Shown here: positions 38,444 to 44,562 of the stretch, piece by piece
Layout: each line of letters begins with the position of its first letter
Numbering within the stretch: position 1 is the first letter of the stretch
From: Acidimicrobiales bacterium
GTDB taxonomy: Bacteria > Actinomycetota > Acidimicrobiia > Acidimicrobiales > Aldehydirespiratoraceae
Length of the DNA: 64,000 nucleotides
Assembly: GCA_963667505.2 (NCBI GenBank)
Contig: OY763490.2
Span: forward strand, 3,245,773-3,309,772
Reading direction: 5' to 3'
Notes under the pieces: model-generated
Seen by the model: only the letters and a program-made list of their open reading frames with translations
Databases searched by the model: none
Told to the model about the DNA's origin: nothing
Made by a program: the position numbers and the translations under genes

Positions 38444-38511
38444 GGGACGGGGAGACTGCTGGCACGGGGAGGCCGCTGGGACGGGGAGGCCGCTGGGACG
38501 GGGATCCGATG
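38444..38511. repeat. 4 x 17-bp G-rich tandem repeat in the glcB/antiporter divergent intergenic region
   Basis: Units are GGGACGGGGAGACTGCT, GGCACGGGGAGGCCGCT, GGGACGGGGAGGCCGCT and GGGACGGGGATCCGATG. There are four GGGG tracts plus interspersed GGG. Confidence 0.9.
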
Positions 38512-40373: not shown

Positions 40374-42410
40374 TCAGCGGTGCGACATCTGCGTGACGGC
40401 GTCCACGACCCGGGCTGCAGACGGAAGGTAGGCATCTTCCAGGGGCGGGCTGAAGGGCACCGGCGAGCGGGCCGCGGTGATTCGAGCCACGGGGGCGCGA
40501 AGCTGGTCGAACACAGCCTCTGTGATGGTGGCGGCAAGTTCGGAGGCCATGCTGCAGCCGGGCGGACTCTCGTCGATCACGACTGCTCGGCCGGTGCGCT
40601 CCACCGAGGCGGCGACAGTGCCCGCGTCGAGGGGCGACAGGGTCCGCAGATCGATGACCTCGGCCGAGGTCTGGTGCTCGGCCGCCAGCCGTTCGGCGGC
40701 TTGGACAGCCAACGGCACGGTCGCGCCGAAGGCGATCAGGCTCACGTCGTCGCCGCGGCGCTGCACCGCGGCCTTCCCGATCGGCAGCCCATAGCGTCCT
40801 TCGGGCAAGGGCCCGCGGGTGCGGTACAGGCCCATGTGCTCCAGGAACACGACCGGGTCGTTGTCGGCGATCGCCTGCAGGAGCAGGCCCTTGGCGGTAG
40901 CCGGAGTGGCCGGAGCCACCACCTTCAGGCCCGGAATGCTGGCGAAGATCTGGTGAAGCGTGTCGGAGTGCTGGCCTCCGGCCCGGAGCCCGGCGCCGGC
41001 CGCCATGCGCAGCACCACAGGCACGTCGGCCTGGCCGCCGAACATGTAGCGCATCTTGGCGGCCTGGTTGAAGATCTGGTCGAAGCAGTACGGGATGAAG
41101 CTGGCCCACATGACATCGACCACAGGCCGCAGGCCGGCCACGGCCGCCCCGACGGCTGCGCCCACGAAACCGGCCTCCGAGATCGGGGTGTCGCGGACAC
41201 GGGTGGGACCGAACTCCTCGATCAGGCCCTTGGTGGCGCCGAACGTACCGCCCATGGCGCCCTCCAGGGGGGCGCCGAGCCCGGCGCCGCCGGCGATGTC
41301 CTCGCCGAGAACGATTACACGGGTGTCGGCCCGCATGGCTTCGACCAGCGCTTCATGGACGGCCTGGAGATAGGAGCCCTCCCGCGCGGTCGTCGGCGGC
41401 TCGCGCGCCGGTTCTCGGTCGGGCCGCTCCTCGCTGATCACGTAGCGCTCGACTTCTGCCGGATCGGGCCAGGGCGCGGCCCGAGCGGCGCGGTAGGCGT
41501 CGTCGAGTTCGGCTTCGACCTCGGCCGTCAAGGCCCGGGCGTCGACGCCCGCGGAGCTGACCAGCCGCGCGACGGGGTCGGTGGCCCGAGCGGCGCGGCG
41601 CTGCTCGCGGGAACGGTAGTGCTCGGGATCGCCGACGTAGTGGCCGCGCATTCGCACGATCTTGGCCTCGACGAGGGTGGGGCCGTCGCCCCGGCGGGCT
41701 CGGTCGATGGCGGTTCCGGCCCCGGTGAGCACATCGAGGTAGTCCGACCCGTCGACCACCGCGGCGGCCATGCCGTAGGCCTGGGCCCGCACCGCTATGT
41801 CGGTGACGCTGGTGGCGTAGGCGGCGGGCGTCGACTCGGCCCAGCCGTTGTTCTCGCACACGAAGACCACCGGCAGACGCCAGATCGCGGCCAGGTTGAG
41901 TGACTCGTGGAAGATGCCTTGGTTGGCTGCTCCGTCGCCGAAGAACGAGACGGCCACCCGGCCGTCGCCGAGCACGCTGGCCGCCAGTGCCGCGCCGACG
42001 GCCAGCGAGATGCCGCCGCCCACGATGGCGTTCGCGCCGAGCACGCCCTTCGTGAAGTCGGCGATGTGCATTGATCCGCCTCGGCCCTTGCACAGGCCGC
42101 TCTCCCGTCCGTAGAGCTCCGACACCATCGCGGCGAGGTCGCAGCCCTTGGCGATGCAGTGGCCGTGGCCCCGGTGGGTGCTGGTGATGATGTCGTCTTC
42201 GTTCAGATGGGCGCAGACCCCCGCGGCCACCGGCTCGGCGCCGTGGTAGGTGTGAACGAAACCGGGCATGTCGCCCTTGGCGAACTCTCGGAGGACCCGG
42301 TCCTCGAACACCCGGATGCGCAGCATCGTCCGCAGTCCGGCCTCGAGCAGCTCCGCGGGCGTCCCCGGCATCACGGGCTGCGGGTCGGGCGGGCTCGGGG
42401 ATCGGTCCAT
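40374..42410 (-). CDS. fused TPP-dependent dehydrogenase E1 alpha-beta protein
   Basis: 678 aa. The N-terminal half has E1-alpha motifs (TSTHRGHGHCIAKG, GRGGSMH, VSFFGDGAANQG, CENN). The C-terminal half has E1-beta motifs (VIVLGEDI...RVRDTPISEAGFVGAAVGAAVAGLRPVV). Confidence 0.85.
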   Translation of the reverse strand: MDRSPSPPDPQPVMPGTPAELLEAGLRTMLRIRVFEDRVLREFAKGDMPGFVHTYHGAEPVAAGVCAHLNEDDIITSTHRGHGHCIAKGCDLAAMVSELYGRESGLCKGRGGSMHIADFTKGVLGANAIVGGGISLAVGAALAASVLGDGRVAVSFFGDGAANQGIFHESLNLAAIWRLPVVFVCENNGWAESTPAAYATSVTDIAVRAQAYGMAAAVVDGSDYLDVLTGAGTAIDRARRGDGPTLVEAKIVRMRGHYVGDPEHYRSREQRRAARATDPVARLVSSAGVDARALTAEVEAELDDAYRAARAAPWPDPAEVERYVISEERPDREPAREPPTTAREGSYLQAVHEALVEAMRADTRVIVLGEDIAGGAGLGAPLEGAMGGTFGATKGLIEEFGPTRVRDTPISEAGFVGAAVGAAVAGLRPVVDVMWASFIPYCFDQIFNQAAKMRYMFGGQADVPVVLRMAAGAGLRAGGQHSDTLHQIFASIPGLKVVAPATPATAKGLLLQAIADNDPVVFLEHMGLYRTRGPLPEGRYGLPIGKAAVQRRGDDVSLIAFGATVPLAVQAAERLAAEHQTSAEVIDLRTLSPLDAGTVAASVERTGRAVVIDESPPGCSMASELAATITEAVFDQLRAPVARITAARSPVPFSPPLEDAYLPSAARVVDAVTQMSHR

Positions 42411-42427
42411 CCGTCTGGGCCTCGTCG

Positions 42428-42676
42428 TCAGCCCGGGTCCGGCCCGGCGGCGATGACCCCGATGCGGGTGCCGATGGGGGCTTCGAGGCCCGGCTCGGCC
42501 TCATGGCGGATCAGGCCTGAGAACTCGGCCTCGATCTCCATCTCCACCTTGTCGCTCTCCATCACGAACAGCGGCTCGCCCGCTTCGACTTCGCCGCCGT
42601 CCTCGACGAGCCACTCGACCAGGGTGACGTCCCCCTCGTACATCCCCGTCTTGGGCAGGATCACCTCGCGGGTCAT
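42428..42676 (-). CDS. stand-alone lipoyl/biotinyl-attachment domain protein (82 aa)
   Basis: VEAGEPLFVMESDKVEMEIEAEFSG carries the lipoyl-lysine motif. No E2 catalytic domain follows. Confidence 0.75.
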   Translation of the reverse strand: MTREVILPKTGMYEGDVTLVEWLVEDGGEVEAGEPLFVMESDKVEMEIEAEFSGLIRHEAEPGLEAPIGTRIGVIAAGPDPG

Positions 42677-42720
42677 CGCCGGTGCATCCCCGTCTTGGGC
42701 AGGATCGCGGCGCCGGTCAT
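42673..42720 (-). CDS. repeat-encoded 15-codon mini-ORF (MTGAAILPKTGMHRR), proximal copy
   Basis: ATG at 42720. Its TGA overlaps the lipoyl-gene ATG (ATGA). Translation status unknown. Confidence 0.2.
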   Translation of the reverse strand: MTGAAILPKTGMHRR

Positions 42721-42764
42721 CGCCGGTGCATCCCCGTCTTGGGCAGGATCGCGGCGCCGGTCAT
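42717..42764 (-). CDS. repeat-encoded 15-codon mini-ORF (MTGAAILPKTGMHRR), distal copy
   Basis: The ATG at 42764 overlaps the GntR stop (ATGA). Its TGA overlaps the next mini-ORF ATG. Translation status unknown. Confidence 0.2.
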   Translation of the reverse strand: MTGAAILPKTGMHRR

Positions 42765-43462
42765 CGCTCGGGGCTAGGGCCAGCCGTGCGGATGGCGCCG
42801 TAGAGGATGTGGAGCGTGTCGGTCGTCAGATGGAGGTGCTGGCCCAGGACCTCGGCGAGTTCGTCGCCGCGGCGTTCCTCGCACAGCTCGACCATGCGCC
42901 GGTGCTGCTCGTCGGCCACGGGAAGGGCGGCCCCCCGGGTGAGCATCAGGTATCGCTTGGTCACCCCCCACAGCCGGTCGAGAGCCCTCTCGATGGTGGG
43001 CGTGAGGCCGGGGGCCAGCAGGACTCGATGGAACCGCTGGTGGGTTGCGATGTAGCCGGCGTCCATGGTTCCGGGCGTCTCGGCTGAGTTCTCCACATCG
43101 GCCAGGGCGGCGTGCAGAACCGGGATGTGCTTGTCGGGCATGCCCGCCGCGGCGCGCCGCGCCACCGGTGGCTCGATGAGGCGGCGCAGGTCGTACACGT
43201 CGGCGAGCTCGTCCAGCGAGATCCTGGTGGCCACCGCTCCCACGTTGGGCATTGTTTCCACCAGCCCCTCGGCCTGGAGCATCCGGATGCCCTCCCTGAT
43301 CGGGATGTGGGAGACCTGGAGGCGCCGCTCCAGGTCTCGGACATTGATGCGCTCGCCGGGGCCGATCGTGCCGTCGAGGATCAGACTGCGCACCTCCTCC
43401 GCGACGGCGTCGGGCACCGAGGTGGAGTTCTTCCTCGACTCGCGGCTGCCAGTGACGTTCAT
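42761..43462 (-). CDS. GntR/FadR-family transcriptional regulator
   Basis: 233 aa. wHTH region RINVRDLERRLQVSHIPIREGIRMLQAEGLV plus a helical FCD-like C-terminus. This is the C-terminal part of the 608-aa tracked ORF. Confidence 0.8.
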   Translation of the reverse strand: MNVTGSRESRKNSTSVPDAVAEEVRSLILDGTIGPGERINVRDLERRLQVSHIPIREGIRMLQAEGLVETMPNVGAVATRISLDELADVYDLRRLIEPPVARRAAAGMPDKHIPVLHAALADVENSAETPGTMDAGYIATHQRFHRVLLAPGLTPTIERALDRLWGVTKRYLMLTRGAALPVADEQHRRMVELCEERRGDELAEVLGQHLHLTTDTLHILYGAIRTAGPSPER

Positions 43463-43518
43463 CGGGCCGTCACCTGTTCGCGCTCGCTCTAGGCCCCGGG
43501 GGCGTGGACGCGGCGGTG

Positions 43519-44562
43519 TCATATCTCGGCTCCTGTGGCTCGACGCTCGAAGTATCTGCTGGTGGCGTCGAGGGCGGCCGCGGCCACGAGGGCGACGCCG
43601 GCGCTCACCCGGACCCAGAAGGGCTTGGCCCCGAGCAGCAGCAGCCCGTCGTTGAGCACGCCGATGAACAGCACCCCGGCCGCTACGCCGAGAAGGTTGC
43701 CCTTTCCGCCACCGAAGGCCACTCCGCCCAGCAGGATCGCGCTGAGCACCTCGATCTCGATCCCCTCGCCCAGGGTCGGGGGTGCCGAGTTGAGCCGGGA
43801 CACCAGCACCACGGCGCCCACGCCCGCGCCGACACTGCTGGCGATGTACAGCAGGAGAGGCAGCCGCCACAGGCTGATGCCGGCCCGGCGGGCCGCTTCG
43901 GCGTTCACGCCGAGGGCCATCATGTGGCGCCCCCACAGCGTCTTGGTGTGGAACAGCCCGCCGATGATGAAGATCGCCCCGGCGATCACCACCGGATTGG
44001 GAATGCCGACGCCGGGTAGTAGGCCCTGGCCGATCTCTTGGAACCCGCCGGTCCACCCGCTGGCCAGATCCCCGTCGTTGACCACGAAGGTGAGGCCCCG
44101 GACTGCGGTGTAGAAGCCCAAGGTGACGATTATCGGAGCGAAGCGCCCCAGCGTCGCCAGGGCGCCCTGGGAGGCGCCGACCGTGCCCGCCAGGAGGATG
44201 GCGACGACGCAGGCGAGGACGGGTTGGACCCCCGCCTCGAGCTGTTTGCCCAGAACGACCGCGCTCAGGCCGAGGGTAGACCCGACCGCGAAGTCGATGT
44301 AGCCCGACATCAAGAGCAGAGCCGTGGGCACCGCCATGATTCCGACCACGGCCACTTGCAGGAAGATGAGCCGGATGTTGGCCGTGGTCATGAACTTCTC
44401 GGACTGCGACCAGAAGAAGAGCACCTCCACGACAAGCGCGACGACGATGCCGTTCCTGAGGAACCCGGCTCGGACCCGGGCGAGCCGAGCCTCGGGATCG
44501 GCGCCCACCGCGCCCGCCGTGCGGACGCGCGGCTTCGTAGGGGAAGCTCCGGCAGTGCTCAT
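43519..44562 (-). CDS. ABC transporter permease (RbsC/BPD_transp_2 type)
   Basis: 347 aa with about 10 TM. Typical N-terminus ...NGIVVALVVEVLFFW.... Confidence 0.8.
   Translation of the reverse strand: MSTAGASPTKPRVRTAGAVGADPEARLARVRAGFLRNGIVVALVVEVLFFWSQSEKFMTTANIRLIFLQVAVVGIMAVPTALLLMSGYIDFAVGSTLGLSAVVLGKQLEAGVQPVLACVVAILLAGTVGASQGALATLGRFAPIIVTLGFYTAVRGLTFVVNDGDLASGWTGGFQEIGQGLLPGVGIPNPVVIAGAIFIIGGLFHTKTLWGRHMMALGVNAEAARRAGISLWRLPLLLYIASSVGAGVGAVVLVSRLNSAPPTLGEGIEIEVLSAILLGGVAFGGGKGNLLGVAAGVLFIGVLNDGLLLLGAKPFWVRVSAGVALVAAAALDATSRYFERRATGAEI

Follow-up and report, generated by a model that had tools for sequence, protein, structure and literature searches.

Mycobacterial interspersed repetitive units, known as MIRUs, differ in copy number among strains, a polymorphism used in typing by variable number tandem repeats (MIRU-VNTR typing). 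These elements, exemplified by the intercistronic repeats at senX3-regX3 in the Mycobacterium tuberculosis complex, are short tandem units lying between co-oriented genes of an operon. A review (PMC12548453) states that translational coupling works best at spacings of -4 to +3 nucleotides (nt) and is largely lost beyond 30-40 nt, and that MIRUs lie at start codons, with an internal open reading frame (ORF) coupled at -4 nt, 'likely' minimizing their impact on the host gene. Here we describe a 44-nt tandem array of similar layout between a GntR-family regulator gene (gntR) and a gene for a lipoyl-domain carrier protein (the lipoyl gene). The array lies in a stretch of 64,000 nt (the window) taken from contig OY763490.2, positions 3,245,773 to 3,309,772, of assembly GCA_963667505.2; the host is an uncultured sponge-type actinobacterium (Acidimicrobiia). 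Coordinates are positions in the window, except those prefixed C1, and the array and its neighboring operon genes are read on the minus strand. We consider it probable that the array is a tolerated, phase-filtered minisatellite that was generated locally at the gene junction.

Tandem Repeats Finder (TRF) gave a score of 226 to a period-44 array at 42641-42767 with 2.9 copies. Read on the minus strand, the sequence runs ...CCCGAGCG ATGACCGGCGCCGCGATCCTGCCCAAGACGGGGATGCACCGGCG ATGACCGGCGCCGCGATCCTGCCCAAGACGGGGATGCACCGGCG ATGACCCGCGAGGTGATCCTGCCCAAGACGGGGATGTACGAGGGG..., which are the gntR tail, two extra units, and the head of the lipoyl gene. Units 1 (42721-42764) and 2 (42677-42720) are identical 44-nt segments, and this exact 88-nt tandem duplication is far beyond chance. 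Each unit contains a 15-codon ORF, MTGAAILPKTGMHRR, whose TGA overlaps the following ATG: mini-ORF 1 (42764-42717) ends at the ATG of unit 2, and mini-ORF 2 (42720-42673) ends at that of the lipoyl gene. The gntR gene (42761-43462, minus strand; 233 aa, FCD subfamily, Pfam PF00392 and PF07729) stops at a TGA (42763-42761) that overlaps the ATG of unit 1 (42764-42762), and ATGA overlaps are thus present at all three junctions: gntR/unit 1, unit 1/unit 2, and unit 2/lipoyl gene. Because 44 is 2 mod 3, each unit is a self-contained ORF stopping at the TGA of the next ATGA. The third, partial copy (42641-42676), at which the TRF array ends, is made up of the lipoyl gene's own first 12 codons, MTREVILPKTGM, as comparison with repeat-less orthologues shows. 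A sequence-only reading of this stretch had described two identical extra copies plus one diverged copy, each extra copy ending at a TGA that overlaps the next ATG, with the gntR stop overlapping the first mini-ORF; all of this was correct, with the refinement that the diverged copy is the lipoyl gene's own start. Between that start and the extra units there are differences at 8 of the 44 positions (7, 11, 12, 14, 37, 40, 41, and 43), and the kinship between unit and gene is confined to the first 36 nt, or 12 codons.

Comparison of orthologous gntR-lipoyl junctions, which the same reading had proposed, showed direct gntR/lipoyl ATGA overlaps lacking any repeat in five species-level relatives of the same genus (G016, G018, G021, G026, and G030) and in two more contigs (L040 and L041) with 80-81% identical GntR proteins. 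Since all seven sister species have a plain ATGA, we conclude that the array was inserted into an already coupled junction, as had been suggested. In two further species gntR is absent from this position, and a permease gene is in ATGA overlap with the lipoyl gene. The repeat-less orthologous lipoyl genes start MT(H/Y)EVI(M/L)PKTGMYEG; because the orthologues share these N-terminal codons, the first 36 nt of the unit were copied from the gene's own first 12 codons. Neither a 21-nt core of the unit (up to two mismatches allowed) nor the 17-nt unit junction had a second site in the 4.48-Mb genome, and the junction pattern had no match in exact scans of two public collections, one of genome contigs and one of metagenome contigs. 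By these results the array is local in origin and not mobile.

Independent assemblies of the locus were located through the 90%-identity protein cluster of the GntR product, which has six other members, and then through the contigs of those members (L034-L039); exact look-ups of the lipoyl-carrier protein and of the E1 dehydrogenase protein encoded downstream of it gave no matches. Four of the assemblies behind these six metagenome contigs were short-read scaffold assemblies and one was a long-read assembly; all six contigs had the same gene order and the array as in the window. The number of extra units was three in L034, L038, and L039, two in L037 and in the window, and one in L035 and L036. 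The flanks of the seven haplotypes were 92-99.7% identical, all haplotypes differed from one another, and one sample held two copy numbers (L037 with two units and L039 with three). The array is therefore a copy-number-variable minisatellite within one species-level population. The earlier suggestion of a slipped-strand expansion is supported in that one to three extra units in seven haplotypes fit turnover by slipped-strand events or unequal exchange. The 1-, 2-, and 3-unit haplotypes all retain an intact lipoyl ORF with its own ATG within an ATGA. Starts of gntR and of downstream genes were called differently between the assemblies; junction arrays of this build confuse gene callers.

All 15 extra units in the seven haplotypes were exactly 44 nt long, began with ATG, had ATGA at both ends, and contained an open 15-codon frame with no internal stop. 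Ten of the 15 were distinct, with 13 variable positions, and nearly all of the changes were non-synonymous (MTGAA.., MTREA.., MTREV.., MSREV.., MTHEV.., and, in L035, MTREAIVHNTRMHRR). Because nearly all unit changes alter the peptide, the mini-ORF peptide is not under constraint. The units had two types of head, GGCGCCGCG and CGCGAGG(C/T)G, arranged as a mosaic along the arrays, and in L034 the gene-adjacent unit bore the lipoyl gene's own head; such mosaicism indicates unequal exchange or conversion. A 1-nt insertion or deletion (indel) segregated in the leader between the permease gene and gntR in three of the seven haplotypes, with no indel in any of the 15 units, a contrast that is suggestive but weak.

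The whole genome, which has 69.6% G+C and approximately 287 TRF rows of period 10 or more per Mb, was examined with TRF, and arrays in which an overlapping stop/start junction is reiterated were then sought. Initial genome-wide screens were noisy, since at 70% G+C long spurious ORFs abound, and only a strict census was used for statistics. An array entered this census if its junction recurred at the period and if each flank was an open frame of 60 codons or more whose difference in G+C content between third and second codon positions (GC3-GC2) was coding-like. Eighteen arrays were obtained, with periods of 2 mod 3 in 12, 0 mod 3 in 4, and 1 mod 3 in 2 (binomial p=0.004 against an expectation of 1/3). 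Arrays without coding flanks had no such bias, with 34 at 2 mod 3 versus 31 at 1 mod 3 (Fisher p=0.03). At least 12 arrays in the genome, the gntR-lipoyl array among them, share this build. In parallel arrays elsewhere in the genome, the unit is visibly the downstream gene's head joined to the upstream gene's tail, and the units are chained by GTGA or ATGA. With a head-plus-tail unit of period 2 mod 3, the copied start falls in the frame of the copied tail, which leaves the mini-ORF open as far as the following ATGA or GTGA, where it stops.

RNA and ribosome-binding properties of the array were also determined. The array RNA folded worse than shuffled sequences (z=+1.77; 195 of 200 shuffles folded at least as well), and Rfam gave no family match; a structured RNA or riboswitch was ruled out by these two results. 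A simple sigma-70 scan and terminator check of the array found no promoter-like site and no intrinsic terminator, the sigma-70 scan being of limited value for Actinobacteria. The 3' end of the 16S rRNA is canonical (..CACCUCCUUUCU). Shine-Dalgarno pairing in the 22 nt before the three ATGs was -3.5, -5.7, and -5.7 kcal/mol, compared with a background mean of -4.15, and was graded as weak. This weak pairing is consistent with starts that may rely on hand-over from the preceding ORF; together with the low RNA structure, it gives an indirect hint that the downstream gene may depend for its translation on the ORF before it.

In the explanation that we favor, a 44-nt segment that includes the start of the lipoyl gene would have been duplicated in tandem, through slippage during replication or through unequal exchange, inside the pre-existing gntR/lipoyl ATGA stop-start overlap. 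A ribosome ending gntR would then meet one -4 overlap after another, from gntR through mini-ORF 1 and mini-ORF 2 to the lipoyl gene, and not an 84-nt untranslated gap. An untranslated insert of 84 nt would be expected to break coupling; read as two ORFs of 15 codons joined by -4 overlaps, the same insert should let ribosomes continue, with termination-reinitiation coupling relayed along the mini-ORFs. Ribosome hand-over from gntR across the array is thus probably kept. The mini-ORF peptide would be functionless, with only its length and phase mattering. Because its phase would make it nearly harmless, the array could persist and vary from one to three copies within the species. Any effect of copy number on the ratio of GntR to lipoyl and E1 proteins is likely a modest by-product. 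The array would be one product of a genome-wide process in which junction duplications are frequent and those with periods of 2 mod 3 preferentially survive; the same build at 12 or more arrays makes mutation plus a phase filter more economical than a regulatory device specific to this locus.

Several points weigh against this explanation. At least one unit is kept in all seven strains, and the array could be useful and not merely tolerated. The intact ATGA across units is not significant at this locus alone; the 13 variable positions miss these 4 of 44 sites with p of approximately 0.23, a comparison that is underpowered. The census relies on our own crude coding calls, made from open frames and GC3-GC2, and on a small sample (n=18). 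The last 8 nt of the unit, CACCGGCG, mismatch both codons 13-15 of the gene (four mismatches) and the present gntR tail CCCGAGCG (three mismatches); a slipped copy of the head, ATG-ACCGGCG, was weighed as a third candidate source for this tail. Because the tail matches neither flank, the founding event was either older or more complex than a simple duplication. Finally, translation of the mini-ORFs, coupling between them, and phase as the target of selection are all inferred from the sequence.

The alternative with the most to say for it is an adaptive translational rheostat, in which selection maintains the array and the number of reinitiation steps sets the ribosome flow from gntR to the lipoyl and E1 genes. 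The variation in copy number between closely related strains and within one sample, the presence of at least one unit in all seven strains and of none in seven sister species, and the weak Shine-Dalgarno pairing, which makes it plausible that downstream translation depends on hand-over, would all fit such a device. However, a dozen junctions of unrelated function have the same architecture, a pattern better explained by a mutational process combined with a filter, and the within-unit conservation of ATGA lacks significance at the locus; we therefore regard maintenance by selection as unlikely. The same doubt applies to the version in which a change of copy number is a heritable and reversible tuning of the regulator-to-enzyme ratio. 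It is likewise improbable, if worth stating, that copy number acts as a dial, each added 15-codon relay ORF lowering or buffering ribosome flow so that strains of the sponge population differ in their enzyme-to-regulator ratio, and that local duplication of -4 junctions supplies the compact operons of this lineage with spacers and new small ORFs, possibly giving birth to MIRU-like elements. Leader-peptide or attenuator-type regulation, or a bioactive peptide of 15 aa, would account for short ORFs directly upstream of a metabolic gene, which is the classical layout, but the peptide is not conserved among strains, runs of regulatory codons are absent, and the RNA has no alternative stable structure (z=+1.77), terminator-like site, or Rfam match; this possibility is very unlikely.

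Insertion of a mobile MIRU-like element that targets start codons would look the same in its outcome, with units in tandem and a mini-ORF flanked on either side by -4 overlaps (PMC12548453). Since the unit takes 36 of its 44 nt from the first 12 codons of the downstream gene, is present at no other site in the genome, and has no match in the genome and metagenome collections, and the other relay arrays carry unrelated, locally derived units with periods of 20-65 nt, we give mobility very little credence. We give as little to a reiterated DNA operator, each unit binding the adjacent GntR regulator or another factor: the array does adjoin a regulator gene, and units with the 'GAA' head type contain the near-palindrome CCGGCGCCGC, but CGCGAGG(C/T)G replaces this head in many units and in every single-unit strain, the site lies within the operon, downstream of the regulator and not at a promoter, and the same architecture is found at junctions with no regulator. 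The sequence-only reading had also allowed for an assembly artefact, either a spurious expansion or a concatenation of haplotypes. The window does come from a metagenome-type assembly with 7% estimated contamination; nevertheless, six other contigs, from short-read and long-read assemblies made independently, have the array at this position, with varied copy numbers, sequence variants between units, and an exact 44-nt register, and an artefact is effectively excluded. Our preferred explanation accordingly remains a tolerated junction minisatellite filtered by phase.

Individual junction arrays elsewhere in the genome include those at C1:2915307-2915455 (41 nt, three extra units), C1:3183040-3183199 (32 nt, four extra units), C1:3013482-3013602 (35 nt, three extra units), C1:2402398-2402570 (35 nt, four diverged extra units), C1:1606740-1606854 (35 nt, three extra units), C1:17922-18052 (47 nt, two extra units), C1:2925717-2925777 (20 nt, two extra units), and C1:3425974-3426208 (65 nt, three extra units). 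A 29-nt array at C1:3361860 was recovered in the genome-wide scan. The 65-nt array lies 116 kb beyond the window and consists of 3.6 copies at 100% identity, with three identical 22-codon mini-ORFs. Its copies open with the start of a 404-aa gene (MTGPLDGVRVVEV..., with a CoA-transferase-like N-terminus by eye) and close in ATGA, and directly upstream of it there is no coding gene. At C1:3785874-3786096, approximately 13 copies of a 17-nt unit, ATGACCGACGGACTCCC, produce a run of 6-codon mini-ORFs chained by ATGA. Large arrays at C1:201777-217403, with a 28-29-nt repeat, GTGTTCCCCGCCCGTGCGGGGGTGAGCC, at a spacing of approximately 61 nt, are CRISPR arrays by appearance. Within the window, a G-rich 17-nt tandem repeat of 3.6 copies is present at 38444-38504, between divergent malate-synthase-like and Na+/H+ antiporter-CBS genes.

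Upstream of gntR is an ABC sugar-type permease gene (43519-44562, minus strand; PF02653), the TGA of which is within an ATGA shared with an in-frame upstream gntR start. Use of this alternative ATG (43522-43520), which overlaps the permease stop, would yield a 253-aa form of GntR; the 233-aa product is the representative of its protein cluster (P0001). In L034, L038, and L039 a 1-nt deletion in the segment corresponding to 43456-43525 (minus strand) makes a 20-codon leader end on the TGA of the gntR ATGA (ATGAGC), and the shifted leader is a further relay mini-ORF. The whole operon reads as a chain of -4 overlaps.

Downstream of the array, the lipoyl gene (42428-42676, minus strand) encodes a stand-alone lipoyl/biotinyl-domain carrier of 82 aa (PF00364, E=3.7e-13), whose best NCBIfam similarity is to the acetoin dehydrogenase E2 lipoyl domain, far under the model cut-off. 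Beginning 17 nt past its stop is a gene for a fused E1 alpha-beta thiamine-diphosphate dehydrogenase of 678 aa (40374-42410, minus strand; PF00676, PF02779, and PF02780). The NCBIfam pyruvate dehydrogenase E1 alpha and beta models both match this protein, each under its cut-off, and the nearest named relatives of the gene are from metagenome-assembled genomes of uncultured Acidimicrobiaceae and Acidimicrobiales (SB06xx bins and OZ-series chromosomes). The enzyme set at 40374-42676 is unusual: a fused E1 alpha-beta comes after a stand-alone 82-aa lipoyl protein, and neither an E2 catalytic domain nor an E3 is nearby. E1 alpha-beta fusions are also present in Chloroflexota, Thorarchaeota, and others. 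Preceding the lipoyl and E1 genes are an ABC transporter of the sugar type, a polysaccharide-deacetylase-like gene, and an SDR-containing ORF of 680 aa.

The locus offers a natural series, with no units in the sister species and one, two, or three in co-occurring strains, in which the ribosome flux that survives each termination-reinitiation step could be measured, and this series is relevant to the unsettled mechanism of translational coupling. The locus also shows that a MIRU-like architecture, in which -4 overlaps lock tandem mini-ORFs together, can form locally out of the start of a gene with no mobile element. Together with the genome-wide excess of periods of 2 mod 3, the locus provides evidence for selection on the phase of junction duplications; if such selection operates, coupling would matter enough in this uncultured lineage to filter mutations.

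Comparison with known systems placed the array closest to the MIRUs, and a literature search for published junction minisatellites of local origin found the MIRU case alone. Contingency loci subject to phase variation resemble it in having a 5'-end tandem repeat that changes copy number by slippage; however, their units of 1-9 nt switch a frame ON or OFF, whereas gain or loss of 44 nt spares the downstream frame and start. Because the lipoyl frame and start are left untouched, no ON/OFF switch is possible, and the lipoyl ORF is indeed intact at all three copy numbers. The features of a leader-peptide attenuator, namely a conserved peptide or regulatory codons together with hairpins or a terminator, were not found. 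Coupled gene pairs, and short 'delivery' ORFs handing ribosomes to a gene downstream, also share features with the array (PMC12548453): stop and start overlap on one mRNA strand at three junctions here and directly, as ATGA, in the orthologues; the chain consists throughout of canonical -4 overlaps, and the mini-ORFs would be ribosome conveyors only. The array differs in that its putatively coupled conveyor ORFs reiterate the start of the gene that follows them and vary in number. As in MIRUs, a small ORF in each unit overlaps the start and stop of its neighbors at -4 nt, an arrangement in which coupling is thought to be preserved (PMC12548453), and all 15 units have these overlaps. The 44-nt units between gntR and the lipoyl gene are within the approximately 40-100 bp of MIRU tandem units between same-strand operon genes, and strains are polymorphic in copy number (1, 1, 2, 2, 3, 3, and 3). 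MIRUs, in contrast, form a dispersed family built on a common consensus and are presumed to be mobile; the 44-nt unit is built from a local gene start, is confined to a single locus with no consensus dispersed over many loci, and is in a sponge-type member of the Acidimicrobiia and not a mycobacterium. The array works like a MIRU-VNTR locus without the defining dispersed consensus, and is a locally made counterpart of the MIRUs.
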